NCBI GenBank assembly: GCA_964354545.1
Contig: CAYHAE010000005.1
Coordinates: 12,414 to 76,413, forward strand
Length of the DNA: 64,000 bases
Direction of reading: 5' to 3'
From: an uncultured Planctomycetia bacterium
Lineage (GTDB): Bacteria > Omnitrophota > Gorgyraeia > 2-01-FULL-45-10 > JAHFGN01
Shown: positions 2,529 through 62,641 of the stretch, piece by piece
Numbering within the stretch: position 1 is the stretch's first letter
Layout of the letters: every line of letters starts with the position of its first letter
Program-made: the position numbers and the translations under genes
Notes under the pieces: generated by a model
What the model was told of the DNA's origin: nothing
The model's database searches: none
Seen by the model: the letters and a program-made list of their open reading frames with translations, nothing else

Positions 2529-3940
2529 AGGTCCTACTGGTCAATCCGTCTCAGGAGAAGGTATACGGGGTAAAGATGTCTCCGATATATCCTCCGCTCG
2601 GCGTGCTCTATATAGGCGCGGCTCTCAAGAAACGCGGCCATGACGTGAGGCTGCTCGATGTCGACGTCGACGGGGTCACGCCGCAGACGTTCAGAGGGAC
2701 GCTTGAGTCGTTCAACCCAAGGGCCGTCGGCATCACGAGCGTCACGCCGACGGTCAAAGACGGGCTCAGGTGGGCATCCGAGACAAAAAAATTCGATCCG
2801 TCTATCCGCGTCATTTTCGGAGGGATACACGCGACCATAGCCCCTTTGGAACTGATCCGCGAGACGTGCGTGGATTTCGTGGCCTTTGGCGAAGGCGAGA
2901 AGACCGTCGTAGAGCTCGCGGAAAGGATCGAGGACGGCACGGGGTCCTATTCCGACATACGCGGCATCCTCTATAAAGTGGGAAGCGACGTTATCCGGAA
3001 CAGCCCCCGGGAGCTCATCGAGGACCTCGACGAAATAGAGTTCCCCGACACCGGCCTTCTCAGATCCCTCGCATGCTATGCCCCGCCCGATGCCGTCCGC
3101 ACCCCCGTCGCCACCATCATGACGTCCCGCGGATGCCCGGGGGATTGCACCTTCTGCTGCAGCAAATACATGTTCACGCGGCGCGTCAGGCTGCGGAGCG
3201 TTGACAATATTGTCCGTGAGATAGACCGCCTCGTCGATTCGTACCATGCGAAAGAGATCCACATCGCGGACGATACGTTCACGGTCAACAAGAAAAGGGT
3301 CGTCGATTTCTGCGAACGGGTCCGGGAAAGGGGATACGATCTGCAGTTTGAATTCATGAACGGCCTCAGGGCCGATTTTGTCGACGAAGATATCTTGAGG
3401 GCGCTCAGATCAATACGCGTGAGGAACCTCGGGTTCGGAGTAGAGTCGGGGAGCGATGAGGTGCTGAGGCTCGCGAAGAAGAACATCGATCTAAAGAAGG
3501 TGAAGAGCGCATTCTCCCTCGCCAAGAAGTTCGGCTTTGAGACCTGGGCGTTCTTCATCATAGGCCTCCCGGGAGAGACGGCCAGGTCCGTAGAGCAGTC
3601 GATACGGCTCGCCATCGAGCTTGATCCGGACTTCGCCAAATTCCTCATCCTGAAGCCTTATCCGGGAAGCGAGGTATTTGACTACCTCTCCGAGCGCAAC
3701 CTCATCGACAGCTACGATTACGACAACTACGGTGTCTACACACAACCGGTCCACCATCTGCCTGAGATGTCCAAGGAGGATATGGTGAGATGGCAGAAGA
3801 GGGCATTCGTACAATTCTATTTGCGCCCTCGAAAATTGTTAGGGCATGCGCTTCGGATAAGGTCATTTACCCAGCTGAAACTTGCTCTGAGAGGCCTGCA
3901 ATTTATAGCATTCAATATTTTTAGAGGGCGCGAGAGATGA
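2525..3940 (+). CDS. Cobalamin (B12)-binding radical SAM enzyme
   Basis: The ORF-track start at 2393 was trimmed to the ATG at 2525 (MKVLLVNPS), which overlaps the upstream stop. The B12-binding N-domain is VLYIGAALKKRGHDV. The radical SAM motif is SRGCPGDCTFCCS. Confidence 0.85.
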   Translation: MKVLLVNPSQEKVYGVKMSPIYPPLGVLYIGAALKKRGHDVRLLDVDVDGVTPQTFRGTLESFNPRAVGITSVTPTVKDGLRWASETKKFDPSIRVIFGGIHATIAPLELIRETCVDFVAFGEGEKTVVELAERIEDGTGSYSDIRGILYKVGSDVIRNSPRELIEDLDEIEFPDTGLLRSLACYAPPDAVRTPVATIMTSRGCPGDCTFCCSKYMFTRRVRLRSVDNIVREIDRLVDSYHAKEIHIADDTFTVNKKRVVDFCERVRERGYDLQFEFMNGLRADFVDEDILRALRSIRVRNLGFGVESGSDEVLRLAKKNIDLKKVKSAFSLAKKFGFETWAFFIIGLPGETARSVEQSIRLAIELDPDFAKFLILKPYPGSEVFDYLSERNLIDSYDYDNYGVYTQPVHHLPEMSKEDMVRWQKRAFVQFYLRPRKLLGHALRIRSFTQLKLALRGLQFIAFNIFRGRER

Positions 3941-4000
3941 CATTTTCATTTTTTCATCAGATAGCGTCAAAAACTGTGCTGACTTTAATCTCTATTTTAA

Positions 4001-4076
4001 CGCAGATATTCGCAAATCAAACGCGGATTTACGCAGATATCTGCGACGATCTGCGTTCGATCTGCGCAGATCTGCG
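4001..4076. promoter_or_regulatory. Array of overlapping palindromes built from a CGCAGAT half-site
   Basis: CGCAGATATCTGCG (4032-4045) and GATCTGCGCAGATCTGCG (4059-4076) are perfect palindromes. Extra half-sites lie at 4001-4013 and 4048-4055. The array sits 50-120 bp upstream of the -35 element of the regulator/transporter promoter. Confidence 0.4.
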
Positions 4077-4123
4077 TTAAGAATGTCAACAGGGTTTATT
4101 GCGGCATCTTTCATCATATATGC

Positions 4124-4152
4124 TTGACAACGCATTATGAATAATATATAAT
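4124..4152 (+). promoter_or_regulatory. Sigma70-like promoter (TTGACA, 17 bp spacer, TATAAT)
   Basis: TTGACA lies at 4124-4129. An exact 17-bp spacer follows, then TATAAT at 4147-4152. This is about 40 bp upstream of the ATG at 4193, in an AT-rich intergenic region. Confidence 0.55.
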
Positions 4153-4192: not shown

Positions 4193-4687
4193 ATGAATAC
4201 CAAATTAGAGAACGCCCAGCACAGGTTTATGGAAGGAATAGGCACGCTGTGTGACAGCTTCGGCCTGAACAAATTCATCGCCCAACTCTACGCCCTCCTC
4301 TACTTAAGCGAGAGACCCCTCTCCCTCGATGACATGGCGAGCAAGCTCAAGGTGAGCAAGGGCAACATAAGCCTCAATATACGGGAGCTCGAGAAGTGGG
4401 GGGCCGTACGGAACATATGGGTGAAGGGCTCCAGAAAAGACTACTATGAAGCGAACCTGGATGTGAAGAAGGTGATGGCAGGCAAGCTGAAATCCGGCGT
4501 TCAGAGGAGGATGGCCGAAGTCTCTGACATGATCTCGGAGTTCAAGCGCATTATCCAGTCCGCATCGTCTGAACTCACGGACGAGGAGAAGGGTATCGTG
4601 AAGATATACGAGGAGAGGTTGAAGAAGATAGAAGAGCTCGAGGCGCTCGTATCGAATGCGATGAGCCTCGCGGATAAGCTATTATAA
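4193..4687 (+). CDS. GbsR/MarR-family winged-helix transcriptional regulator
   Basis: The segment FIAQLYALLYLSERPLSLDDMASKLKVSKGNISLNIRELEKWGAVR matches the GbsR/OpcR subfamily pattern (LS.EPLSLDE.A..L.VSK..VS.N.R.LE..G.V). The RBS is GAAGGGAAAG. A C-terminal coiled-coil-like tail is present. Confidence 0.6.
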   Translation: MNTKLENAQHRFMEGIGTLCDSFGLNKFIAQLYALLYLSERPLSLDDMASKLKVSKGNISLNIRELEKWGAVRNIWVKGSRKDYYEANLDVKKVMAGKLKSGVQRRMAEVSDMISEFKRIIQSASSELTDEEKGIVKIYEERLKKIEELEALVSNAMSLADKLL

Positions 4688-7267: not shown

Positions 7268-7291
7268 GGCGCCTGACTGAAGTGCGGGGCT

Positions 7292-7470
7292 AATCCCCTC
7301 CGCAAAATCCCCGGCTTTTGGTTCGACGAGCTCACCATCCCTCGAACCATCCCGAGCCGTTCGACAGGCTCACGATGCCTCGAATGGTGCCGAGCAGAGT
7401 CGAGGCACGAAGTCGAGGGGCAAGCCGGGGATGGGAAGTTGCGGAATAGGATTTTGCTTCGGGGAGGGAG
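7292..7470. repeat. MITE/REP-like intergenic element, copy A (long variant) with terminal inverted repeats
   Basis: The 5' end is AATCCCCTCCGCAAAATCCCCGG. The 3' end is GGATTTTGCTTCGGGGAGGGAG, an imperfect reverse complement of the 5' end. The interior holds nested inverted repeats (GGTTCGA...TCGAACC, CCTCGA...TCGAGG). The same termini occur at 27258-27346 and 61629-61706. Confidence 0.5.
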
Positions 7471-7533
7471 TCTCGGCCCTGCCAGCGGAGCTGGCGAGGC
7501 CGAGGGGCTCCACAAAAGAGAAGGAGACGATCG

Positions 7534-8148
7534 GTGCAAAAAAATGTGGTGTGGCATGCGCATAAGGTAACGAGACCGGAGAGGGGCGCCATCAAGGGCC
7601 ACCGCCCGTGTGTCCTCTGGTTCACGGGGTTGCCGTCATCGGGTAAATCCACGATCGCGAATGAGCTTGAGTCCGTCCTCAATCAACGAGGGGTGCATAC
7701 CTATGTCCTCGACGGGGATAACGTACGGCATGGGCTGAATAGGAACCTCGGCTTCACGAAAGAGGACCGCAAGGAGAACATACGCAGGATCGGTGAAGTC
7801 GCGAAACTCTTCGTCGACGCAGGTGTCGTGACGATCGCGGCGTTCATCTCTCCCTTCGCGGAGGACCGTCGATGCGCGCGGGATCTTATGAAAGAGGGGG
7901 AGTTCATAGAGATATATGCGAAATGCCCCCTCGAGACGTGCATGGAACGCGACCCGAAGGGGCTCTATAAGAAGGCGATCGCAGGCGAGATAAAGGATTT
8001 TACCGGTATAAACCAACCCTATGAGGAACCGCTTAAGCCTGAGATCGTGCTCGATACGGGCAAGCTGTCGGTAGAGGAGGGGGTCAACACGATCGTCGAA
8101 TATCTTGTCCGCAATGAGACCATCGGCGAGAAAGGAAAGGAGTTATGA
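7534..8148 (+). CDS. cysC: Adenylyl-sulfate (APS) kinase
   Basis: The P-loop [20 protein letters not shown] sits in the canonical APS kinase context. The size is about 200 aa. The start is GTG at 7534, 7 nt after the AAGGAG RBS. Confidence 0.9.
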
Positions 8149-9317
8149 ACTGCCCTTACGGAAGAAAGGAGCTCGTCAATGCCGTCGCCGCGGCCGGCGA
8201 AAGGGAGAGGCTCCTTAAGAAGGCAAAGACGCTTCATACGATAACGCTCGCGGACAGATTCCTTTCCGATTGCGAGATGCTCGCGATCGGCGCCTTCACG
8301 CCGCTCGATGGCTTTATGGGCCGCGACGAAGTCGATTCCGTCGTAAAACATTCCCGTCTTCCGAACGGGCTCATGTGGGGGATACCGATCGTCTTATTGG
8401 TCCGAGCGGACGAGGCCTCTTCCGTCAAAGTGAACGACGATGTGGCGCTCTGTGACCAGGGCGGGAGGACGATCGCCGTCATGCGTGTCGCCGAAAAGTT
8501 CACATATCCGAAAGAATCCTTCTGTAAAGAGGTCTTCAAGACCGTTGATCCGAACCACCCGGGCGTCAAGACGATACTCGAGAGCCCCGATGTCTTCCTC
8601 GGCGGGCCCGTGACGCTTATCGAACGCCCCTTGAGGAATGAAGTGGCGCCCTCATACTATCTCGATCCGGGCCAGACGCGCGCGGAGTTCAAAAAACGCG
8701 GATGGTCAACGATCGTCGCGTTCCAGACACGCAACCCTATCCATCGCGCTCACGAATATCTCATCAAGTGCGCCCTCGAATCGGTTGACGGCGCGCTCAT
8801 CCATCCTCTCGTAGGTGAGACGAAACCTGACGATATCCCCGCCGGGGTGCGGATGACGTGTTACAAGGCATTGATCGAGAACTACTTTAACCGCGAGAGG
8901 GTCGTCCTCTCGGTCCTGCCGACCTTCATGCGCTACGCCGGCCCCCGGGAAGCGCTCAACCACGCGATCATGCGGAAGAACTACGGATGCACCCACTTCA
9001 TCATCGGCCGCGACCACGCGGGCGTCGGGAATTACTACGGCCCGTTCGAGGCGCAGGAGCTTCTCCTTTCGTGCGCGGATAAGATCGGTATCACGCCGGT
9101 AAAATTCGATAATGCGTATTTTTGTAAAAAATGCGGGAACATGGCGTCGTCAAAGACATGCGGCCATGACCCGTCACATCATCTCCAGCTAAGCGGCACG
9201 AAGGTGCGCTCGATGCTTAAAGAAGGGGTGCGGCCGCCGGAGGAGTTCTCAAGGGCGGATGTGGTGGATATCCTTATCGCGTGGATGGCGGGGCAGGAGA
9301 AGGAACTGGTCAAATGA
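8145..9317 (+). CDS. sat: Sulfate adenylyltransferase (homo-oligomeric ATP sulfurylase)
   Basis: The diagnostic ATP sulfurylase motifs [13 protein letters not shown] and GRDHAGVG are present. A PUA-like N-domain is present. An AAGGAG RBS precedes the start. Confidence 0.9.
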
Positions 9318-27257: not shown

Positions 27258-27346
27258 TAGTCCCCTCCGCAGAAACCATCGGGCTTTAGCCCGAGGATTG
27301 GATTCCGTTATAACGGAATCCATGCGTTTCTGCTTCGGGGAGGGAG
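27258..27346. repeat. MITE/REP-like intergenic element, copy B
   Basis: TAGTCCCCTCCGCAGAAA is followed by the hairpin ATCGGGCTTTAGCCCGAGGAT and an internal palindrome GGATTCCGTTATAACGGAATCC. The element ends in the inverted terminus TTTCTGCTTCGGGGAGGGAG. The termini are shared with copies at 7292 and 61629. Confidence 0.5.
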
Positions 27347-27524
27347 CCTTAATGAAAAGCTCGCATGCTGATGGGGATATTTCCCCAAAGAAAAAAGGTG
27401 CCCCGGCCTTTAGGCCGGGGGGCTCCACAGATAGTGATTATTATTCAAATGCTCCTTTTCTATCGGTATTCGAGTGAGGAGCATCGCGGGGTTAAGACCG
27501 TACGGTTATGAACGAGGTATACCA

Positions 27525-31635: not shown

Positions 31636-32771
31636 TAGCATGGATCGTGCTCATACTCATCGTGCTCTGCGCGGTCATTGAATCGCTCTCATATGCGATC
31701 TACCGTACGAACAGGAATGTGCGGGAGATCGCGAGGGATATGCTTGGCAAAAAGAGGCCCCCCAGCAGCGACATCGAGACCTTCATGCTCAGATACGCGG
31801 AACATCCTTTTCTCGGCTATGCGCTTAACCCCGAATTCAGGAATTCGTTCGGAGAGGCGATCCACAACACATGCGGGTTCCGGTTCGAAGGGGATCTCTA
31901 CAACCTTGACGGAACGGTGGTCTATTGCGCCGGAGACAGTTCGACCTATTGCAACGGGATCGAGAGAAATAAGGATACGTGGCCGGCACTTCTCCAGAAC
32001 GCCCTGCGTACCCACCCTTCTTACAAAGAAGCGGTGGTGGTAAACGGCGGATGCGGGGCATGGACGAGTTTTCAGAGCCTCATTCGTTTCTTGACATGGG
32101 TCGATGTCATCAGGCCCCAGCTCGTCATCGTGTATCATGGAAAGACCGATTTCATACCATTCATGGCGGGCGATGCATCTGTCCGGAAGATATTCCCCGA
32201 CTACAGCAATATCATGTGTTCGCTGAGGATGGGTGCCCTCGCGCGCGCGTGGGGGGCGCTGGCGAGGTTCTCATATGCCGGGAAGATCGCCTACGGTGCC
32301 TACGTGAACACTGCGTACGAGAACATCCATTGGAAAGTGCTTCGGCAGAAGAAGGCAAAGCTTCCCAATGAGATCCGCAAGGGGTTGCGGCGCGTGACGC
32401 CGGAAGCGTTTGATTTTATCTTCTCGAGGTACCGTTCGTTCGTGGATGCATGCGTTGCGCGGAAGATACCCATCCTGCTGGTCACTCAAAGAGTGGCGAG
32501 CGTCCTCTATCGGCCCTATATGAGCGAGCTCAATGACCGGATCAGGTCGCTTGCCTGTGCACCGGAAGGGGTCTACGTGTACGATTTCGACCGCGAGGCC
32601 TCGGGCGCAGATAGGTTCCTTTTCGACAGTGTCCACTTCACGCACGAAGGTGTGCGTTTCTTCAGCGAACGGCTGAGGGATTTCATATGTTCTCAGATCA
32701 TCCCTCCCTTACGCGGAAAGGCGCGAGAGACATCCGAGGTGCTCGCGCAGGGGAGAGGAGGGACGGTGTGA
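31632..32771 (+). CDS. Membrane-anchored SGNH/GDSL-family hydrolase (candidate glycan O-acyl esterase/transferase)
   Basis: An N-terminal transmembrane helix (MIAWIVLILIVLCAVIESL) is present. SGNH block I is VVYCAGDSSTY. Block V is the DxxH in FDSVHFTHEG. Confidence 0.5.
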   Translation: MIAWIVLILIVLCAVIESLSYAIYRTNRNVREIARDMLGKKRPPSSDIETFMLRYAEHPFLGYALNPEFRNSFGEAIHNTCGFRFEGDLYNLDGTVVYCAGDSSTYCNGIERNKDTWPALLQNALRTHPSYKEAVVVNGGCGAWTSFQSLIRFLTWVDVIRPQLVIVYHGKTDFIPFMAGDASVRKIFPDYSNIMCSLRMGALARAWGALARFSYAGKIAYGAYVNTAYENIHWKVLRQKKAKLPNEIRKGLRRVTPEAFDFIFSRYRSFVDACVARKIPILLVTQRVASVLYRPYMSELNDRIRSLACAPEGVYVYDFDREASGADRFLFDSVHFTHEGVRFFSERLRDFICSQIIPPLRGKARETSEVLAQGRGGTV

Positions 32772-33577
32772 TGAGCAGGCTGCGGCGCGCATGGCGCATG
32801 ATCGCAATGGTACCCGCGCGTATGGGGTCGACAAGGCTTACGATAAAGAACCTCGCCCTCCTCAACGGGAAGCCGCTCATCTATTACGCGATAAAGGCAT
32901 CGAAGGATTCGGGCGTATTCGAACGCATCGTGATCAATTCGGAGCATCCGCTCTTCGCAAAGATCGCGAGGCGTTACGGGGTCGAGTTCTACAGGAGGCC
33001 GGACGAGTGGGCGACGTCGGACGCGAAGTCGGATTCCGTCGTATACGATTTTCTCACGAAGAACCCTTGCGATATCGTCGCGTGGGTGAACCCGACCTCG
33101 CCCCTCCAGACAGGCGAAGAGGTGAGGCGCGTCGTGGAGTACTTCCGGGAGGAAAAACTCGATTCTCTCATCACGGTGAAGGACGAACAGGTCCACTGCA
33201 TGTATAGGGGGAGGCCCGTGAACTTCCGCATGGATGAGGAGTTCGCGAAGACCCAGGACCTGAGCCCCGTCCACCCGTTCGTCTACTCGGTGATGATGTG
33301 GCGGTCCCGGCCCTTCATGCGGGAATTCGAGAAGAAGGGCCGCGCGCTCTTCTGCGGGAAGTTCGGCGTATACTCTGTGAGCAGGCTCACGGGCATCATC
33401 ATCAAGCGCGAAGAGGACCTTATGCTGGCGGATTATATCATGCGGGCCGCGGCGCGGGGAAAGAGATATAAGGTGCGCTATGACAGGCTCGTGAAAGACT
33501 ATAGACCACAGACTATAGACCATAGACCGAAGACCATAGACCAGAGACAAACGGCTGGCGCGAAGGGACAGCGATGA
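32771..33577 (+). CDS. Acylneuraminate cytidylyltransferase-family protein (second CMP-sugar synthetase-like gene)
   Basis: The CTP_transf_3 signature MIAMVPARMGSTRLTIKNLALLNGKPLIYYAI is present. The ATG at 32771 overlaps the upstream TGA, after a GGAGG RBS. The C-terminus is encoded by a short tandem DNA repeat. Confidence 0.7.
   Translation: MSRLRRAWRMIAMVPARMGSTRLTIKNLALLNGKPLIYYAIKASKDSGVFERIVINSEHPLFAKIARRYGVEFYRRPDEWATSDAKSDSVVYDFLTKNPCDIVAWVNPTSPLQTGEEVRRVVEYFREEKLDSLITVKDEQVHCMYRGRPVNFRMDEEFAKTQDLSPVHPFVYSVMMWRSRPFMREFEKKGRALFCGKFGVYSVSRLTGIIIKREEDLMLADYIMRAAARGKRYKVRYDRLVKDYRPQTIDHRPKTIDQRQTAGAKGQR
33495..33550. repeat. Short tandem repeat (ATAGACC[A] x4-5) inside the 3' end of a CDS and upstream of the next start
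   Basis: The sequence GACTATAGACCACAGACTATAGACCATAGACCGAAGACCATAGACCAGAGAC encodes a DYRPQTIDHRPKTIDQRQT tail. It lies 25-80 bp upstream of the ATG at 33574. Confidence 0.5.
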
Positions 33578-37869: not shown

Positions 37870-39687
37870 ATGAAAAAAAATACGACATTTCCCACAGTGT
37901 GGTTCTTCCTGAAACAGTACCGGGCCATGTACGCCATCATCCTCTTCGTACTGCTCGCAGACGCGCTCTTTGAGAACATGACCATCGCGGTGCTCCTGCC
38001 GCTCCTGCAGTCGTTCCTCGGCCAGACGAGCGGTCTCACGCGGGGAGGCCTCTTCGCGTTTATCGCGAACCTCATCGGGCGCCTCCCCTTCGGCGACCCC
38101 GTCATCAGCACATGTATCCTCGCCCTCGTGCTCGTGGCCGCGAAGGAGGCGCTCGCGTTCATCCGCGAGGTCCTCGTGTCCGGGTACAGCGTGGCGAAGG
38201 TGATGAGCGATGCGAAATTGAAGGTCTTCGAGAAGTATGCCCGTTCCGATTACCAGTTCTTCCTCGACAGTAAACAGGGCGCGCTTGTCTACAATGCGCT
38301 CGTCGCGACCGCGCGGCTCGGGAACTGCCTGCTCTACATACCGCAGCTGGCGACCGCGCTATTGCTGATACTGTCGATCGGCATCGTGCTCATGGCCATA
38401 TCGGTGCGTCTCACGCTCATGCTGCTTGTCGTGGGACTTGTCTATAGCGTGGCCACCCACGTGCTTGCGAAGAAGGTGTCATACGGCATGGGCAAAGAGA
38501 AGACAGAGGCGAGCACTGACTCGCAGGTGATCACCAACGAGTTTATCGACGGGATCAAGCAGATCAGGACCTCCGGGACATCGAATTTCTGGCTTGCCCG
38601 TTTCAGAGGGCCTGTCAAGAGGTTAGAGAGGGTCTTTATCAGGAATGCGGCCTTGGTGGCCGCTCCCGGAAGGGTGATGGAGCTCATGCCGGTCGTATTC
38701 CTGGTGGGCATCACGCTCGTCCTGAGATACTGGAGCAAGGTATCCTCCGAAGGGATCCTGTCCAATCTCGCGGTCATCGGCGTGTACGCATTCGCCCTCT
38801 ACAGGCTCGTGCCGCACCTTACCTCCCTCGGACGGTTGAGGATGCAGATTATGGAGACCTTGCCTGACGTCGAGCTCCTCCATGTCCTTCTTCAGAAGAA
38901 GACCGCCAGTATCGCATACGGCGAAAGAGAGCTGCGTAACCTTGAAAGGGAGATACGATTCGAAGGCGTGACCTTCGGTTATAAGGGGAAGAAGGATGTC
39001 TTAAAAGACGTGAGTTTCGCGATCGAAAAAGGTGCCACCGCAGCGCTCGTGGGAGAGTCCGGGGTCGGGAAATCCACGATCGTGAACCTCCTTATGAGAT
39101 TGTTTGACCCTGACAGCGGGAGGATCACCATCGACGGCACAGACTTAAAGGACCTCACGTACGACACGCTCACGAGGATGATCGCGGTCGTGAGCCAGGA
39201 GACGTTCATATTCAACGGTACCGTCAGGGAGAACATCGCCTTCGGGGCGCACGACGTGCCGCCAGGCGACGTCGTTGCCGCGGCCACGCTCGCGTACGCG
39301 GATGAGTTCATAAGGCTCCTTCCTCAAGGGTACGAAACGATCGTTGGCGACAAGGGGTTGAAGCTTTCCGGAGGCCAGAGGCAGCGCATCGCGATCGCCC
39401 GTGCAATACTTCGCGATCCGCAGGTGCTCATCCTCGACGAGGCGACGAGCTCCCTGGACCACAACTCGGAACTCATCGTCCAGAGCGCGATCAACAATAT
39501 ATCGAGAGACAGGACGACGCTCGTGATCGCCCACAGGCTTTCGACAGTGATGAGCGCCGACAAGATCGTCGTGCTCCACGGCGGCCGGATCGTCGAAGAA
39601 GGGACGCACGGTGAACTGATGGGAAAGAGCAGTGTCTATAAGGGCCTCTACGAAGATCAGACGGTCGGGGCGGGGAGAGAGGGTTAA
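37870..39687 (+). CDS. ABC exporter, fused transmembrane and ATP-binding domains (MsbA-like lipid/glycan exporter type)
   Basis: A six-helix N-terminal transmembrane domain is present. Walker A is GESGVGKST. The signature is LSGGQRQRIAIARAIL. Walker B is ILILDEATSSLD. Confidence 0.85.
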   Translation: MKKNTTFPTVWFFLKQYRAMYAIILFVLLADALFENMTIAVLLPLLQSFLGQTSGLTRGGLFAFIANLIGRLPFGDPVISTCILALVLVAAKEALAFIREVLVSGYSVAKVMSDAKLKVFEKYARSDYQFFLDSKQGALVYNALVATARLGNCLLYIPQLATALLLILSIGIVLMAISVRLTLMLLVVGLVYSVATHVLAKKVSYGMGKEKTEASTDSQVITNEFIDGIKQIRTSGTSNFWLARFRGPVKRLERVFIRNAALVAAPGRVMELMPVVFLVGITLVLRYWSKVSSEGILSNLAVIGVYAFALYRLVPHLTSLGRLRMQIMETLPDVELLHVLLQKKTASIAYGERELRNLEREIRFEGVTFGYKGKKDVLKDVSFAIEKGATAALVGESGVGKSTIVNLLMRLFDPDSGRITIDGTDLKDLTYDTLTRMIAVVSQETFIFNGTVRENIAFGAHDVPPGDVVAAATLAYADEFIRLLPQGYETIVGDKGLKLSGGQRQRIAIARAILRDPQVLILDEATSSLDHNSELIVQSAINNISRDRTTLVIAHRLSTVMSADKIVVLHGGRIVEEGTHGELMGKSSVYKGLYEDQTVGAGREG

Positions 39688-39786
39688 GGTAGGGTTATGG
39701 AAGGTTATGGGAGGTTACGAGTCCGGCATGCGCACTGCAACCTTACGTAACCTTAAGTAACATTCCGTAACCTTATGTAACCTCAG
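39682..39786. repeat. Palindromic array of tandem 10-bp repeats (4x RRGGTTAYGR, spacer, 5x GTAACCTTAN)
   Basis: The left arm at 39682-39720 is GGGTTAAGGT AGGGTTATGG AAGGTTATGG GAGGTTACGA. The right arm at 39738-39786 is CAACCTTAC GTAACCTTAA GTAACATTCC GTAACCTTAT GTAACCTCAG. The arms are reverse complements, have a 10-bp period, and lie immediately upstream of the RBS of the 39806 gene. Confidence 0.55.
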
Positions 39787-39805
39787 ATAGAGGAGACTGG
39801 ACAAG

Positions 39806-40573
39806 ATGGATCTAAAGACAAGGCTCAAGGCAGGCGGGGTGACGATAGGTTCCTGGGTCACGCTTTACCATACATCCATCGCGGAGATAATGGCAAAGGC
39901 AGGATTTGATTGGCTCACGGTGGATATGGAGCACTCCTCGATAACGCTCGATCAGGCCCAGCATCTCATACAGGTGATAGAGCTTTCAGGCATCGCGCCC
40001 CTGGTGCGCGTTGGCGAGAATGACGCCGCGCTCATAAAGAGGGTGATGGACTCGGGCGCACACGGCGTCATCGTCCCTATGGTGAATACGAAGGACGATG
40101 CCCTGAGGGCCGTCTCTTCGGTGAGGTACCCTCCGCGGGGCACGCGGGGGGTAGGGCTTGCGAGGGCCCAGGGCTATGGGTTCGAGTTCCAGAAGTACAA
40201 GACATGGGCGAATAAGGGAACCATCCTCATCGTCCAAATAGAACACATCAACGCGGTGGAGAACCTCGATGAAATACTGGCGGTTGACGGCGTCGATGGC
40301 TTTATCGTGGGACCCTACGACCTCTCGGGTTCCATGGGAGTCCCGGGAGAGCTGGGGCACCCAAAAGTAAGGAGCGCTCTCAAAAGGATAATGACGGTCG
40401 CGAGACGCCATAAGGCGGTGCCGGGATTTCACATCGTCCCTCCCGATCCCGCACTCGCGGCGGAGAAGATAAGGGAAGGTTACCGTTTCCTCGGGCTTAG
40501 CTTCGACGCGTACTTTTTGGGAACGATGTGCAGGGAAGGGCTCTCCATGATAAGGAAGAAGGTGAGGAGATGA
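39806..40573 (+). CDS. HpcH/HpaI-family class II pyruvate aldolase
   Basis: The family N-terminus LKAGGVTIGSWVTLYHTSIAEIMAKAGFDWLTVDMEHS is present, with the catalytic Arg context RYPPRGTRGVG. An AGGAGA RBS precedes the start. Confidence 0.8.
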   Translation: MDLKTRLKAGGVTIGSWVTLYHTSIAEIMAKAGFDWLTVDMEHSSITLDQAQHLIQVIELSGIAPLVRVGENDAALIKRVMDSGAHGVIVPMVNTKDDALRAVSSVRYPPRGTRGVGLARAQGYGFEFQKYKTWANKGTILIVQIEHINAVENLDEILAVDGVDGFIVGPYDLSGSMGVPGELGHPKVRSALKRIMTVARRHKAVPGFHIVPPDPALAAEKIREGYRFLGLSFDAYFLGTMCREGLSMIRKKVRR

Positions 40574-57956: not shown

Positions 57957-58772
57957 ATGAAACATGCACATGAAAAGAAAGTCAGTATAATGGATGTGGT
58001 GATCCTGTGCGGGGGGATGGGGACACGCCTCAGGGAAGAGACTGAGATAAAACCGAAACCGATGGTCGAGATCGGGGGGAAGCCCATCCTGTGGCACATC
58101 ATGAAATTCTACTCGCACTACGGCTTTAACAAGTTTATCCTTGCCCTCGGATACAAGGGCGAATATATAAAGAAGTATTTTTACGATTACGGGTACCTCT
58201 CGAGCGACCTCACGATCATCCTAGATCCGAAGATACCCCCGAAGGTCCACTCGCTCTCTCGCGAGAACCATTGGGAGATCACCTGTGTTGACACGGGGCT
58301 CGCCACGTTAAAGGGAGGGAGGATCAAGCGGCTCGAGGGATACATAAAGAGCGACACTTTCCACCTCACGTACGGCGATGGCTTGAGCGACGTGGACCTG
58401 ACGAGGCTCATCGCCTTCCACCGGAAGTCGAAGGGGATAGGAACGGTGACCGCGGTCCGGCCGCCTTCACGTTTCGGGGAGATCCTCATCAAGGGCGATC
58501 TCGTGAAGGAGTTCGAGGAGAAACCCCAGCTCACGACCGGGTACATCAACGGAGGTTTCTTTGTGTTCACGAGGAAGCTCCTCGATTACCTTACGCCCGA
58601 CGAGAATTGCGACCTTGAATTCGGCGCACTCCAGCGGCTGTCTCGCGAAGGGCAGCTCTCGGCGTACAGGCATGAGGGCTACTGGCAGTGCATGGATACG
58701 GTGAGGGACACGCAGTACCTCAACAAGCTCTGGGAATCGGGAAATCCGCCCTGGAAGGTGTGGGAGAAATGA
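57957..58772 (+). CDS. rfbF: Glucose-1-phosphate cytidylyltransferase
   Basis: The canonical RfbF N-terminus MDVVILCGGMGTRLREETEIKPKPMVEIGGKPILWHIMKFYSHYGFNKFILALGYKG is present. An AAGAGGG RBS precedes the start. Confidence 0.8.
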   Translation: MKHAHEKKVSIMDVVILCGGMGTRLREETEIKPKPMVEIGGKPILWHIMKFYSHYGFNKFILALGYKGEYIKKYFYDYGYLSSDLTIILDPKIPPKVHSLSRENHWEITCVDTGLATLKGGRIKRLEGYIKSDTFHLTYGDGLSDVDLTRLIAFHRKSKGIGTVTAVRPPSRFGEILIKGDLVKEFEEKPQLTTGYINGGFFVFTRKLLDYLTPDENCDLEFGALQRLSREGQLSAYRHEGYWQCMDTVRDTQYLNKLWESGNPPWKVWEK

Positions 58773-59899
58773 AAGGACACAGGACAAAGGACACAAAGTC
58801 ACTAGGTCACCAAGTCACCACGTCACCAGGAGACAGGACACGACGAACATCCACCGTCCTCCTCACCGGCAACACGGGCTATATAGGGACCGTGATGACG
58901 GGGTGCTTACGGGAAGCGGGGTATAAGGTCGTGGGCCTCGACAGCGACTGGTTCAAAAGGAATACCCTTTTTCCGGTCCCTGAGGACTCGCGGCCAGATA
59001 CACAGATCGTATGCGATATCCGCGACGTGCGTGCCGAAGACCTCGATGGGATCGATTCCGTGATCCATCTCGCAGGGCTCTCCAATGACCCCCTCGGCGA
59101 GATCAACCCGCGGCTCACCGATGATATCAACCACAAGGCGACCATGAGGCTCGCGGAACTGTGCAGGGCACAAGGCATCGGGCGATTTTTGTTTGCGTCG
59201 TCATGCAGCATCTACGGAATAGCGCCTAAGGACGCACCGATAGACGAGAGCGGTGCGGTTAACCCTCTCACGGCATATGCGAAGGCGAAGGTCGACGCGG
59301 AGCGTGGTCTCGCACAGATGGCAGATGACGGTTTTCATCCCGTATTCATGCGTAACGCCACCGTCTATGGGCTCTCTCCGAGGCTCAGGCTCGACCTCGT
59401 CGTCAACAACCTCCTCGCGTGGGCGTACCTCATGGGCGAGATCGCGATCATGAGCGACGGCACGCCCTGGCGTCCGATCATCCACATTCAGGACTTCTGC
59501 GCGGCATTTATCGCGGCACTCGGGGCGCCGGTGGAGAAGGTCCAGGGCCAGGCATTCAACGTAGGCGTTGACGGCGAGAACTATCGGGTGAGGGAGATTG
59601 CCGAAGAGGTGAACAGGGCCCTGCCTCAGTCGACGATAAAGATATTGAATAAGACAGGGCCGGACGAAAGGACGTACAGGGTCGATTTCTCAAAGATCAA
59701 GACCGCGTTGCCCGGGTTCACACCACAGTGGGATCTCAAGAAGGGTATTGCTGAGCTCCTCGAGGCGTATCGACGGTATGGACTCACGCGCGAAGACTTC
59801 GAATCGGACAAGTACTTCCGCATCAAGGCGGTGAAGGCGCTGCGTGCGTCAGGAGAGCTGGATGAGGAGCTGGCGTGGACACACAAGGACACAAGGTAG
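58769..59899 (+). CDS. NAD-dependent sugar nucleotide epimerase/dehydratase with repeat-encoded low-complexity N-terminus
   Basis: The Rossmann motif is VLLTGNTGYIGTVMTGCL. The YxxxK is TAYAKAKVDAE. The first 30 codons are built from GGACACA/GTCACCA heptad-like DNA repeats. There is an ATGA overlap with rfbF. Confidence 0.75.
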   Translation: MKGHRTKDTKSLGHQVTTSPGDRTRRTSTVLLTGNTGYIGTVMTGCLREAGYKVVGLDSDWFKRNTLFPVPEDSRPDTQIVCDIRDVRAEDLDGIDSVIHLAGLSNDPLGEINPRLTDDINHKATMRLAELCRAQGIGRFLFASSCSIYGIAPKDAPIDESGAVNPLTAYAKAKVDAERGLAQMADDGFHPVFMRNATVYGLSPRLRLDLVVNNLLAWAYLMGEIAIMSDGTPWRPIIHIQDFCAAFIAALGAPVEKVQGQAFNVGVDGENYRVREIAEEVNRALPQSTIKILNKTGPDERTYRVDFSKIKTALPGFTPQWDLKKGIAELLEAYRRYGLTREDFESDKYFRIKAVKALRASGELDEELAWTHKDTR

Positions 59900-59989
59900 A
59901 TCCTTCGCCCGCTAAAATGCTTCCATAAGGTCGCATTTTTTAACGCGGGCGCAGGATCACATTTGCTTCGCAAATGTGAGGAGGTTCAC

Positions 59990-60469: not shown

Positions 60470-60600
60470 CGACGGAAAATCCGAATATCGAAATCCGAAT
60501 ATTGAAACCTCAGAAATCGTTGCTACAAAAGCGCGGTTTCGAATTTAGGATTTCGAATTTAGGATTTGTTTAGGATTTCGGATTTCGAGTTTAGAATTTA
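60470..60600. repeat. Palindromic tandem-repeat array (AATCCGAATATYGAAA x2 ... TTCGAATTTAGGATT x2, GGATTTCGGATTTCGAG)
   Basis: The forward half-array lies at 60477-60507 and the reverse-complement-type half-array at 60536-60598. The array ends 10 bp before the RBS of the 60618 gene. Confidence 0.5.
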
Positions 60601-60617: not shown

Positions 60618-61529
60618 GTGGCTCAAAATTCTACGAACGATGTGCTGGTGATTGGCGCGCAGGGCCTTATAGGCCGGCAGGTCGCGAATATCCTCACCGA
60701 ACACGGCGTGAGCTGGAAGGGCACGTTCTTCACGAGGCCCGCGGAAGGGCTCCTGAAATTGGATATCACCGATCCTGCCTCCGTGACGAAGGTCTTTACG
60801 GAAGTCCGGCCGAGGGCGGTGTTCCACTGCGCAAACCTTGCAGGTGGCGTCGATTTCTGCGAGACGAACCCGAAGAGGGCCACCGCATTCCACCTGAGCG
60901 CGACGAAGGAGATAGGGGCATGGTGCGTAAAGATTGGAGCGCCGCTCGTGTTCCTGTCGACCGATTACATATTTGACGGCATGCGGGGTCCCTATAAGGA
61001 AGACGACGCGACGAATCCCCTCAATTCGTACGGGGTCCTGAAATTCGAGGCCGAGAGGTTGATCCAGGCCAGCCTTACGTCGTTCATCATTGTGCGGACC
61101 ACGAACGTGTACGGATGGGACCCCGATACGAAGACGCCGAACTACATCATGGCGCTCTACAGGGCCCTCAAAGAAGGTAAACCCTTCAACGCCCCCTCGT
61201 ACCTGTGGGGGAATCCTACATACGTCGACGACCTCGCTCGCGCCGTTGTCGAGCTGTGGGAAGGCGGAGCGAACGGGATCTTTCATGTCGTGGGAGGCAG
61301 CTTCGTGAACAGGCACGAATGGGTGCTCGAGGCGTGCAGGGTTCTGGGGTTAGACGCCTCCCTCGCGAAAGAGATAAAATTCCCCTCGCCTAATATGGTC
61401 CAGCGGCCGATGAGGTCCTGGCTCAACCCCGAAAAATTCACATCGTCGTACAGGACCGTGCTGCATTCCATGGCCGAGGGCCTGGAACTCATGAAGGCGG
61501 ACATGCAAAACTCACAATATCCGGTTTGA
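60618..61529 (+). CDS. rfbD: dTDP-4-dehydrorhamnose reductase-like (RmlD family)
   Basis: The N-terminal motif is VLVIGAQGLIGRQVANIL. The RmlD motifs LSTDYIFDG and NSYGVLKFEAE are present. The start is GTG at 60618, after an AAAGGAGG RBS. Confidence 0.7.
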   Translation: MAQNSTNDVLVIGAQGLIGRQVANILTEHGVSWKGTFFTRPAEGLLKLDITDPASVTKVFTEVRPRAVFHCANLAGGVDFCETNPKRATAFHLSATKEIGAWCVKIGAPLVFLSTDYIFDGMRGPYKEDDATNPLNSYGVLKFEAERLIQASLTSFIIVRTTNVYGWDPDTKTPNYIMALYRALKEGKPFNAPSYLWGNPTYVDDLARAVVELWEGGANGIFHVVGGSFVNRHEWVLEACRVLGLDASLAKEIKFPSPNMVQRPMRSWLNPEKFTSSYRTVLHSMAEGLELMKADMQNSQYPV

Positions 61530-61536
61530 TTATATG

Positions 61537-61625
61537 TTAAATCCGAAATCCGAATATCGAATTTGTATCGAGTTTCGGATTTAGAATTTCGGATTTGTTT
61601 CGTATTTCGGATTTCGTGTTTCGAA
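61537..61625. repeat. Second copy of the AATCCGAA/TTCGGATT palindromic tandem-repeat array
   Basis: TAAATCCGAAATCCGAATATCGAA is followed by TCGAGTTTCGGATTTAGAATTTCGGATTTGTTTCGTATTTCGGATTTCGTGTTTCGAATTT. The array has the same unit family and architecture as 60470-60600. It abuts MITE-like copy C. Confidence 0.5.
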
Positions 61626-61628
61626 TTT

Positions 61629-61706
61629 AATCCCCTCCGCAGAAATCCCCGGGCTTTAAACCGGGGATGAATGCGAGCGATAATATTTCTTCTTCGGGGA
61701 GGGAGC
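61629..61706. repeat. MITE/REP-like intergenic element, copy C
   Basis: AATCCCCTCCGCAGAAA is followed by the perfect hairpin ATCCCCGGGCTTTAAACCGGGGAT. The element ends in the inverted terminus TTTCTTCTTCGGGGAGGGAG. The termini are shared with copies A and B. Confidence 0.5.
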
Positions 61707-61738
61707 TCTCGGGCCTAAAGGTCGGAGGGGCTCCACAT

Positions 61739-62641
61739 ATGAATATGCCGCTATTTACCGTTATAATCTCGACCTATAACCGCCGGGACCTCCTCCCCCG
61801 CGCGATACGGAGCGTGCTCGGCCAGACGCTCGGGGACTTTGAGCTCCTCGTGATCGACAATGGGTCGACGGACGATACGCGCTCGGTCGTAGAGGATATC
61901 AAAGACCCGCGGATAAAGTACGTCCTCAGCCCGCACCCCACAGAATCGTGCGATGGGCCCAGGAACCTCGGCATCCAGACGGCGAGAGGGGCCTTCGTCG
62001 CGTTTCTCGATGACGATGATATCTGGTATCCGGAGAGGCTCGCGAAGGTCAAGAAGGCGTTCGACGAACATCCTGATGCGTCGTGCGTGTGCCACAACGA
62101 GATGAAGAACGTGAACGGCCGCATAGACGGCGTATTCCGGTACGGCCCCTGGACGGACGATCTCTACGACCGGCTGCTCTACGAGGGGAACTGCCTCTCT
62201 TCGTGCGGAACGACTATCAAGACCGACGTAGTGAGGCGGTTTGGCGGATTCGATACGAGGCGCGACTATACTGAGGTGGCAGATTTTGACCTCTGGATAC
62301 GTATGGCGGAGAAGGGCGTGAAGACCTTTTTTCTCGATGAGCCGCTTGGTGAATTTTTCCTCACAGAGAGGAATTGGAGCGTCGTGAGCCCCCGTTTCTG
62401 GGCAAAGCAGGCTCTCATGGTCCGGACGCACATCCTTCGCAGCGAGAAGAAGCCTTTTTTCATGGTCTCGAAGAAGGGCATGAGGAAGCTGTTCCAGCTC
62501 TATTTTATCACCGCGAGAGCATACATGCGCTCGAAACAGTATCTGGATGCCTTCCTGTGGTTTCTCAAGGCATCTCTCTTTCTCGTGAGGCGGCCGAGCC
62601 TCATCTTTAGTCCGCGTCCGAGGCCACGATATCATGCATAA
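61739..62641 (+). CDS. GT2 glycosyltransferase
   Basis: The GT2 signature is FTVIISTYNRRDLLPRAIRSVLGQTLGDFELLVIDNGSTDDT...LDDDD. The start was trimmed to the ATG at 61739, 8 nt after a GGAGGGG RBS. Confidence 0.8.
   Translation: MNMPLFTVIISTYNRRDLLPRAIRSVLGQTLGDFELLVIDNGSTDDTRSVVEDIKDPRIKYVLSPHPTESCDGPRNLGIQTARGAFVAFLDDDDIWYPERLAKVKKAFDEHPDASCVCHNEMKNVNGRIDGVFRYGPWTDDLYDRLLYEGNCLSSCGTTIKTDVVRRFGGFDTRRDYTEVADFDLWIRMAEKGVKTFFLDEPLGEFFLTERNWSVVSPRFWAKQALMVRTHILRSEKKPFFMVSKKGMRKLFQLYFITARAYMRSKQYLDAFLWFLKASLFLVRRPSLIFSPRPRPRYHA

Follow-up and report, generated by a model that had tools for sequence, protein, structure and literature searches.

A palindrome made of short tandem repeats fills the spacer between an ABC-transporter gene and an HpcH/HpaI aldolase gene on a 64,000-nucleotide stretch of contig CAYHAE010000005.1 (the window, by which we mean that whole stretch). 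We tentatively read this palindrome, at positions 39680 to 39786, as a long simple-sequence repeat in palindromic arrangement that is transcribed within a read-through operon, forming a stem-loop between cistrons, and that probably acts posttranscriptionally, if it acts at all. The analysis shows the anatomy of the repeat, its potential to form a hairpin with a bias toward the sense strand, its membership in a class of repeat arrays, and the absence of promoter, terminator, and regulator signals.

Two facing arrays of a 10-nt unit

The first-pass annotation had proposed a palindrome formed by two inverted arrays of 10-bp tandem repeats, and this was borne out. There are four units on the left and five on the right of a 17-nt spacer, and Tandem Repeats Finder (TRF) gave a period of 10 for both arms, counting 2.5 copies on the left and 4.5 on the right where 4 and 5 are found by eye. 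The elements of the palindrome and its immediate borders, including the open reading frame (ORF) upstream and the ribosome-binding site (RBS) downstream, are as follows.

39680 to 39719, + strand: left arm, four tandem units of about 10 nt, AGGGTTAAGG, TAGGGTTATG, GAAGGTTATG, and GGAGGTTACG, core AGGTTAYG (from the sequence and the TRF period of 10)
39685 to 39687, + strand: TAA stop of the ABC-transporter ORF (37870 to 39687), within the first repeat unit and at the base of the stem
39720 to 39736, strand unassigned: spacer AGTCCGGCATGCGCACT, 17 nt, with GCATGC; the loop region of the minimum-free-energy structure reaches 39745
39737 to 39786, + strand: right arm, five tandem 10-nt units, GCAACCTTAC, GTAACCTTAA, GTAACATTCC, GTAACCTTAT, and GTAACCTCAG, RTAACCT, the inverse of the left unit
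39681 to 39783, + strand: predicted sense-strand RNA hairpin, 34 bp, imperfect, with 6 G.U pairs; helices 39681-86/39778-83, 39689-702/39763-76, 39704-08/39757-61, and 39711-19/39746-54
39791 to 39808, + strand: aldolase RBS GAGGAG (39791 to 39796) and ATG (39806), the RBS lying 8 nt 3' of the stem base

In the left arm the GGTTA motifs start at 39682, 39693, 39703, and 39713, a spacing of 11, 10, and 10, and the units of the right arm follow one another at 10, 10, 10, and 10. The arms had been described as reverse complements of each other. Their inverse orientation stands, but the match is inexact: a repeat search returned 30-nt arms with 77% complementarity, the copies are imperfect, and the first left unit is degenerate and shifted by 1 nt. 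The arms are two sub-families of one unit (GGRAGGTTAY on the left and, read as its reverse complement, TAAGGTTAC on the right) and not mirror copies. AGGTTAY matches lie inside the palindrome at 39702 and 39712 on the + strand and, as AGGTTAC, at 39747, 39767, and 39777 on the − strand; 5 of the 13 matches in the 64-kb window are thus clustered in 82 nt, with about 7 expected window-wide on both strands. The AGGTTAYG palindrome is found at one locus only in the window. Its right arm has TAA stops in all three frames.

The annotated position, between the ABC-transporter stop (39687) and the aldolase RBS, agrees with the sequence and the ORFs. The palindrome occupies the gap from 39688 to 39805, overlaps the upstream stop codon, and stops 20 nt short of the HpcH/HpaI aldolase ATG at 39806, and the stem covers nearly all of the 118-nt spacer between the transporter stop and the aldolase start region. 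The genes adjoining it are all on the + strand. The upstream ORF has ABC_membrane and ABC_tran domains (Pfam) and a C terminus of normal length; these domains fit the annotated "MsbA-like" transporter, a name that is acceptable merely as a loose label.

Predicted folding of the spacer

RNA folding had been suggested as a check on an annotated stem of 40 bp. When run, it gave a stable hairpin on the sense strand, of 34 bp with small internal loops and not 40 bp, with a free energy of −46.6 kcal/mol (z score, −5.8); none of 200 shuffled sequences folded equally well. The antisense RNA reached −34.7 kcal/mol, so that the sense strand folds better by 12 kcal/mol, and the single-stranded DNA of the palindrome gave −21.2 kcal/mol (z score, −4.6). 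Six of the 34 stem pairs are G.U on the sense strand; the same six are A.C on the antisense strand, where none is G.U. Since the arms are sub-families of one unit, these six pairs are not six independent events. In a register test, every in-phase register paired about equally well (0.55 to 0.68 Watson-Crick and 0.72 to 0.84 counting G.U), and the pairing of the hairpin is therefore "slippery." Near-equal registers and two arm sub-families fit independent slippage in each arm rather than a structure conserved site by site.

Sister palindromes in the same gene cluster

The window is a glycan cluster of about 60 kb, nearly all on the + strand, with Pfam matches to NeuB, UDP-GlcNAc 2-epimerase, DegT aminotransferases, cytidylyltransferases, enzymes of sulfate activation and sulfotransferases, many B12-radical-SAM proteins, and glycosyltransferases. 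The palindrome had been said to mark a module boundary, which is correct descriptively: genes within blocks overlap or are less than 20 nt apart, the 11 gaps of at least 40 nt in the window fall between blocks, and gene content at this junction varies in a relative. A palindrome of short tandem repeats is present in 4 of those 11 gaps, namely, the one at 39680 to 39786 and three sisters.

3997 to 4080, unstranded: ACGCAGAT / ATCTGCG palindrome, period of about 10 to 11 nt, −48.4 / −49.1 kcal/mol, z scores −9.4 / −7.9
60477 to 60600, + strand: palindromic array of the AAATCCG(AATATCG) / TTTCGGATTT type, 7/14-nt units, directly upstream of the RBS of an rmlD-like gene
61539 to 61628, + strand: element of the AAATCCG family, 7/14-nt period, directly downstream of the rmlD-like gene

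Sense-strand structure with a z score of −3.3 or lower was found in 7 of the 11 gaps. The sense fold was better by at least 6.5 kcal/mol in 4 of these 7, and the antisense fold was never clearly better. TRF detected nine short-period arrays in the window, compared to 1.2 on average (at most 4) in 30 block shuffles, an excess of about 7-fold, and eight of the nine sit in intergenic gaps, which make up about 3% of the window sequence. The same architecture with differing units, together with the seven structured gaps, points to structure, and not the GGTTAC sequence, as the common denominator. Because the sister palindromes have periods of 7, 8, and 10 to 11 nt and other units, 10-bp helical phasing is not a general property of these repeats.

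Promoter, terminator, and regulator signals

A terminator scan of positions 39000 to 40500 returned no terminator-like site, and on neither strand is the stem followed by a T/U run. The hairpin lacks the GC-rich stem, short loop, and 3' U-tract of an intrinsic terminator, its stem being AU and G.U rich. No sigma70-like promoter was found in or after the palindrome, the right arm included; the sole one in any intergenic gap of the window is at 4124 to 4152. In the 64 kb, the only DNA-binding gene identified with Pfam is a MarR-like gene 35 kb from the palindrome. Operators of response regulators or ribbon-helix-helix proteins are phased repeats at or upstream of a promoter, and the gap has no sigma70-like site. 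The annotated alternative to an RNA hairpin, an array of same-face sites for an oligomerizing regulator, is thus unsupported: the sigma70 promoter is lacking, the nearest regulator gene is 35 kb off, sister periods vary, and permuted versions of the repeat core are about as common in viral contigs. Rfam 15 gave no match window-wide at gathering thresholds and none at an E value of ≤1 for positions 39600 to 39880. The window contains no transposase or recombinase gene by Pfam, and in the sequence flanking the palindrome neither a convincing target-site duplication nor an outer inverted repeat is evident.

Several other candidate identities were tried and set aside. A sigma54 promoter in the loop (CGGCATGCGCACTGCA, 39724 to 39739) has 3 mismatches, and the window holds 62 such matches compared to 75 expected, which is chance. 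In an integron attC site, arranged R''-L''...L'-R', RYYYAAC comes first and GTTRRRY last; here the arms run GGTTA...TAACC, in the opposite order, GTTRRRY is unmatched, and no integrase gene is found in the window (Pfam). CRISPR and iteron readings were ruled out on anatomy. The repetitive extragenic palindrome (REP) or bacterial interspersed mosaic element (BIME) does not describe the palindrome either, each arm being made of 10-nt direct repeats, and the loop lengths are noncanonical for a telomere-like or G-quadruplex structure in the G-rich left arm. Mimicry of the Shine-Dalgarno (SD) or anti-SD sequence by the arms is at odds with orientations that are inconsistent among the sister elements and the arrays of CAZOYW, a metagenome-assembled genome (MAG) described below. 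A 10-amino-acid mini-ORF runs from an ATG at 39728 to a TAA at 39760; its SD-like GGAGG is hidden within the stem, and we take the ORF to be a coincidence.

The junction in homologous aldolase loci

The best protein relatives are in Omnitrophota and other uncultivated lineages. No close relative was found: for the aldolase, the best identity was 70% in the protein collection and at most 66% in metagenome loci. The nearest aldolase contig, L120 (ENA contig k141_952271), has an aldolase with 70% amino acid identity and an ABC transporter with 40%; between the two, genes for an ATP sulfurylase/PK, an APS kinase, and a sulfotransferase are inserted, with tight junctions and no array. Comparison of L120 with positions 37870 to 40573 of the window shows module shuffling inside a glycan cluster. 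The sulfate-activation genes of the window (7534 to 9317) lie 30 kb upstream of the junction, whereas in L120 they are at the junction itself.

Across 67 homologous aldolase loci, the upstream gap ranged from −31 to 241 nt. One of them, L123, has a palindromic array of a different unit, GGCAATA / TATTGCC, at the same position upstream of the aldolase. In this metagenome relative, directly upstream of the aldolase (110 to 680), a small four-helix-bundle ORF (23S rRNA intervening-sequence type) is flanked by arrays of the heptamer AATAGGC in inverted orientation. At L121, L122, L173, L200, L125, and L126, AGGATTGA / AGGATTA arrays follow the aldolase stop and precede another small four-helix-bundle ORF.

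Related arrays in other genomes

A scan for three phased AGGTTAY units, with one genome per species, gave at least 119 loci; the source genome of the window is not among the matches listed. Among those listed, decamer arrays were seen in at least seven Omnitrophota MAGs and in a Brocadiaceae MAG, and an inverse array follows the decamer array at L046, L048, L088, and L098. The densest family is in the MAG CAZOYW ("uncultured bacterium SRP192927_co7_26"), where the multicopy decamer has a consensus, CGTAACCTTA, identical to that of the right arm in the window (L012, L015, L018, L033, L036, L040, L053, L073, L091, and L111 among the matches listed). There, the decamer GGTTACGTRA / CGTAACCTTA forms about one array per 4 to 8 kb of retrieved loci, both in palindromic form around a conserved loop, CGCCAGCGTGTT, and singly, as arms adjoining start codons that have no SD sequence. 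The CAZOYW arrays are intergenic with one exception (L012, overlapped by a doubtful ORF call); they often abut stop or start codons and stand in either orientation relative to the downstream gene. The window and CAZOYW share no proteins by tblastn. The same CAZOYW loci carry 9-nt arrays (GGATGGACG and TCCTATAGG), 8-nt arrays, and a TAACTGA array of 11.7 copies, the last at L091 (7847 to 7928) in a genome with many GGTTACGTAA arrays.

In the retrieved loci, a tandem array is paired with its inverse 50 times; the periods are 7, 8, 9, and 10 nt, the units are of many kinds, and such palindromic pairing is far above the expectation for independent arrays. Of the 23 co-directional palindromic arrays of other genomes, 16 have the better fold on the sense strand (one-sided binomial test, about 0.05). 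In viral contigs, GGTTAY stretches numbered 32, compared to 20, 20, and 62 for permuted cores. With permuted cores equally frequent, the recurrence of GGTTAY among the matches mostly reflects the search pattern and not a special motif. In the literature searched, we found no paper containing GGTTAC repeat strings and none on intergenic tandem repeats in Omnitrophota.

Other arrangements were encountered among the same matches. Dialister MAGs (L002, L011, L042, L043, L055, L065, L085, and L093) and L077 share a recurring, MITE-like (miniature inverted-repeat transposable element) element of about 170 bp in which outer inverted repeats, AAAGGTTATTATTCTGCTG ... CAGCAGAATAATAACCTTT, surround 3+3 convergent GGTTAT decamers, and these loci have many further 7- and 9-nt palindromic arrays (GGTGACT / AGTCACC and CTCAGGTTG / GAGTAACCT). 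In an Omnitrophota MAG (L112, 3261 to 3309), five copies of GGTTACGGAA lie within an intact nadC ORF (2749 to 3597) and are translated through as ...KVTEGYGRLRKVTEGY..., a decamer array tolerated inside a coding sequence. Contigs 2 and 5 of the Rhodobacterales MAG CBDCKB (L019, L062, L063, L066, L068, L069, L071, L090, L096, and L107) contain tens of kilobases of a higher-order satellite of about 41 bp built from decamers of the CTGTAACC type. Such a repeat is uncommon in bacterial assemblies and may be true satellite DNA or a mis-binned contig.

Further repeats and elements in the window

The sister palindrome at 3997 to 4080 lies between the end of a B12-radical-SAM gene and a perfect sigma70 promoter, TTGACA-17-TATAAT (4124 to 4152), upstream of the MarR-like gene (4193 to 4687) and an NMT1/ABC importer. 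The region from 3997 to 4152 has the appearance of an operon's end joined to a promoter, or of an operator. The rmlD-like gene (60618 to 61529) is bracketed, cassette-like, by the two AAATCCG-family palindromic arrays at 60477 to 60600 and 61539 to 61628. Single-arm arrays also occur. AGACCAT is repeated 7.6 times at 33496 to 33548, at or over the 3' end of ORF 32687 to 33577, and three AGGACAC copies plus four to five AGTCACC copies (58774 to 58828) come straight after a stop at 58772. The gene of ORF 58688 to 59899 probably starts after the latter array, because its Epimerase domain begins at residue 57. A nonrepeat hairpin of about 20 bp, GATCCTTCGCCCGC...GCGGGCGCAGGATC (59905 to 59960; z score, −5.6), separates the epimerase gene from a dTDP-sugar isomerase gene.

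A composite element is present in three copies on the + strand (7290 to 7514, 27258 to 27429, and 61628 to 61737), just upstream of the starts of genes for an APS kinase, a GFO-type oxidoreductase, and a GT2 glycosyltransferase. Its layout is a 5' AATCCCCTCCGCAGAAA, a variable interior, TTTCTGCTTCGGGGAGGGAG (stem 1), and a second stem closing on GGGGCTCCACA, with two compensatory pairs among the three copies. It has no Rfam match and is absent from all 334 loci retrieved; it could be REP/MITE-like or an undescribed cis-RNA. Its position implies that the GT2 ORF starts at about 61739 to 61745 rather than at 61667.

Relation to known repeat classes

The palindrome belongs to a class that is already known. 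Short tandemly repeated repetitive (STRR) elements form hairpins between cotranscribed genes such as hupS-hupL in filamentous cyanobacteria, where a role in transcript stability or translational coupling has been proposed but is unproven (PMC2670836). As in those cases, short tandem units face their inverse, the spacer between co-directional genes can fold into a long hairpin, and several repeat families share one genome. STRR units, however, are usually 7 nt and belong to heterocystous cyanobacteria, whereas the unit here is 10 nt and the host is uncultivated, probably an Omnitrophota-like MAG. By analogy, the window palindrome would work like an STRR hairpin; with its 10-nt unit and noncyanobacterial protein relatives, it is not an STRR in the strict sense. 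An STRR unit is characteristically found at many loci of a genome; the present unit occurs at one locus in 64 kb, and dispersal is seen in CAZOYW. Arrays of 5- to 11-nt units, known as long simple-sequence repeats (LSSR; Mrazek et al. 2007), are phylogenetically scattered and abundant in some prokaryotes, as summarized in PMC4679880. By that summary, LSSRs and the window arrays have in common the 5- to 11-nt unit, tandem copies, intergenic bias, sporadic distribution, and presumed slippage origin, while the concept covers direct arrays and an array facing its inverse falls outside it. The window arrays agree with it in having a tandem 10-nt unit beyond chance, in being intergenic, and in a unit length that is not a multiple of 3. 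Intergenic TAACTGA heptamer repeats are described from marine Beggiatoaceae, Cyanobacteria, and Bacteroidetes (MacGregor 2015, PMC4679880). Both they and the present arrays are multicopy, short-unit arrays that abut start or stop codons, contain stops in all frames, and have a unit recurring in unrelated phyla. The BOGUAY TAACTGA sets are direct in 169 cases and inverted in 1, stand forward just upstream of starts where they replace the SD sequence, and are predicted to be unstructured (PMC4679880). The window palindrome, in contrast, is strongly structured and inverted and is followed by a canonical SD sequence.

Two further comparisons concern operon spacers and operators. REP/BIME elements and intercistronic stem-loops of enterobacteria (mRNA stabilizers of the malE-malF type) are transcribed operon-spacer palindromes that can protect upstream mRNA from 3' exonucleases, and they and the window element are both extragenic palindromes in operon spacers. 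REP units are, however, imperfect palindromes of 20 to 40 nt with conserved sequence, alternating orientation, and a link to the RAYT transposase, whereas the arms here are 10-nt direct repeats. The operators of OmpR/PhoB family and ribbon-helix-helix proteins (tor boxes, pho boxes, met boxes, and omega heptads) usually have 2 to 4 units, up to about 10 for omega, and resemble the window arrays in their short units, 7- to 11-bp spacing, and direct or inverted arrangement. Such operators are found at promoters with a cognate regulator; the window palindrome has neither a promoter nor a nearby regulator and spans the stop-to-RBS spacer.

Proposed mechanism and alternative explanations

The palindrome may have begun as a short inverted repeat, AAGGTTAC...GTAACCTT, that grew by replication slippage of the 10-nt unit, independently in each arm, to give 4 and 5 copies. 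Because the cluster is co-directional and no promoter or terminator signal is adjacent, the palindrome is most likely transcribed within the read-through mRNA of the long cluster, where its spacer would fold into the 34-bp imperfect stem-loop. Any action would most likely be posttranscriptional and independent of the repeat sequence, that of a structured intercistronic spacer. The folded spacer could keep untranslated RNA structured and hidden, the stem could block 3'-to-5' exonucleolytic decay of the upstream segment, and it could offer a double-stranded processing site of the RNase III type. A ribosome terminating at 39685 to 39687 would open the basal ~15 bp next to the RBS, and, placed there beside the downstream RBS, it might allow translational coupling.

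Several points weigh against this proposal. The hairpin is not conserved, the closest relative having a tight junction with other genes, and a structured upstream gap was found in only 1 (L123) of the 33 homologous aldolase loci with a gap of at least 50 nt. Because it is absent from L120 and only that one gap is structured, the hairpin does not belong to the aldolase module as a conserved component; such hairpins are instead a habit of certain genomes, here located at a junction of variable gene content. The register test found no register-specific covariation between the arms. The G.U bias is due in part to descent shared among units, and a C-to-T bias on the nontemplate strand is another possible source. 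Palindromic arrays in other genomes lie in co-directional (23), divergent (6), and convergent (5) contexts; since divergent and convergent contexts and single-arm arrays occur, the class, taken together, does not consist solely of intercistronic RNA devices. The sign test on 16 of 23 gives about p = 0.05. Transcription through the palindrome, and any effect on mRNA stability, processing, or translation, we infer.

It is possible, if somewhat unlikely, that the palindrome is a functionless by-product, a selfish or neutral DNA palindrome grown by slippage plus hairpin-templated repair or template switching in a repeat-prone genome and tolerated only in a noncoding spacer. Lack of conservation at the orthologous junction, the equivalence of all pairing registers, the many unit types and periods in this and other genomes, the occurrence of arrays in every gene context and both orientations, and a GGTTAY core not over-represented relative to permuted cores in viral contigs (32 versus 20, 20, and 62) would all suit such an origin, and stops in all frames of the units would confine arrays to spacers, an argument made after PMC4679880. 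It leaves less well explained the sense-strand G.U bias here and the better sense fold in 16 of 23 co-directional cases, as well as a pairing of arrays with their inverses far beyond the expectation for independent arrays. Structured gaps are also present in 7 of 11 cases in the cluster versus 1 of 33 in relatives, which suggests a genome-wide pressure or use for folded spacers. We consider it very improbable that the palindrome is a relic or target of DNA rearrangement, whether as a MITE-like "solo" pair of array ends or as a hotspot of recombination that joins gene modules. The variable junction with three sulfation genes inserted in L120, the rmlD-like gene flanked by two arrays of one family, the small four-helix-bundle ORF between inverted heptamer arrays in L123, and the conserved loop of CAZOYW palindromes and outer inverted repeats around 3+3 GGTTAT units in the ~170-bp Dialister element are in line with that possibility, but the flanks show no evident target-site duplication or outer inverted repeat, the window has no transposase or recombinase gene and no second copy in 64 kb, and the ABC-transporter C terminus is of normal length.

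OmpR/PhoB-type regulators bind direct repeats of 10 to 11 bp, and OmpR half-sites resemble GTTACA. An array bound sequence specifically by a protein that oligomerizes along the decamers, whether on double-stranded DNA (a winged-helix response regulator or ribbon-helix-helix protein) or on RNA, would match that behavior, as well as the 10-bp spacing, the conserved 7- to 8-nt core with variable flanking positions, the highly multicopy consensus CGTAACCTTA in CAZOYW, and the GGTTAC decamer arrays in at least seven Omnitrophota MAGs. An RNA-binding protein has been proposed for the analogous heptamer arrays (MacGregor 2015, PMC4679880). We nevertheless find this improbable: there is no promoter to regulate, the palindrome overlaps the upstream stop and reaches to 20 nt from the ATG, Pfam shows no regulator gene within about 35 kb, and the 64 kb contain one such array. 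Sisters of the same architecture have unrelated units with periods from 7 to 11 nt, CAZOYW arrays take either orientation to the downstream gene, permuted-core controls are equally frequent in viral contigs, and the cross-genome recurrence of GGTTAY was imposed by the search pattern. A factor-independent or partial terminator or attenuator, a long hairpin without a U-tract that would make the aldolase module less transcribed than the genes upstream, seems more doubtful still. The hairpin is very stable and begins immediately after the stop codon, and the sister at 3997 to 4080 is at an expected terminator position just upstream of a perfect promoter; yet the stem has no T/U run after it on either strand, the scan was empty, the stem is AU and G.U rich rather than GC rich, and no downstream promoter was detected that could restart about 24 kb of co-directional genes. 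We give equally little credence to a broader idea, that decamer arrays of the (A)GGTTAC(G) type, whether direct or convergent, are a cis-element common to several phyla (Omnitrophota, Planctomycetota, the CAZOYW lineage, and others), with the window palindrome as one node and not an incidental hairpin. Such arrays would either be recognized by a conserved factor that binds nucleic acid, in a posttranscriptional or nucleoid-organizing network comparable to the one proposed by MacGregor for TAACTGA, or arise at intergenic breaks through templated addition of repeats or snap-back repair.

Biological significance

An "operator array" annotation of this locus is unsupported, and we propose in its place a repeat hairpin in the intercistronic spacer that separates an exporter gene from a sugar-modification module. 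Palindromes of 7- to 11-nt repeats fill a large share of the operon spacers in this genome and recur in Omnitrophota, Dialister, CAZOYW, and other MAGs. The class has been described mainly as cyanobacterial STRRs, and the wider pattern in uncultivated genomes is under-described. Should these hairpins determine the stability of mRNA segments or translational coupling, they would be relevant when expression is predicted for very long glycan operons. Should they be mutational alone, they would be markers of lineages with unusual slippage or palindrome tolerance.

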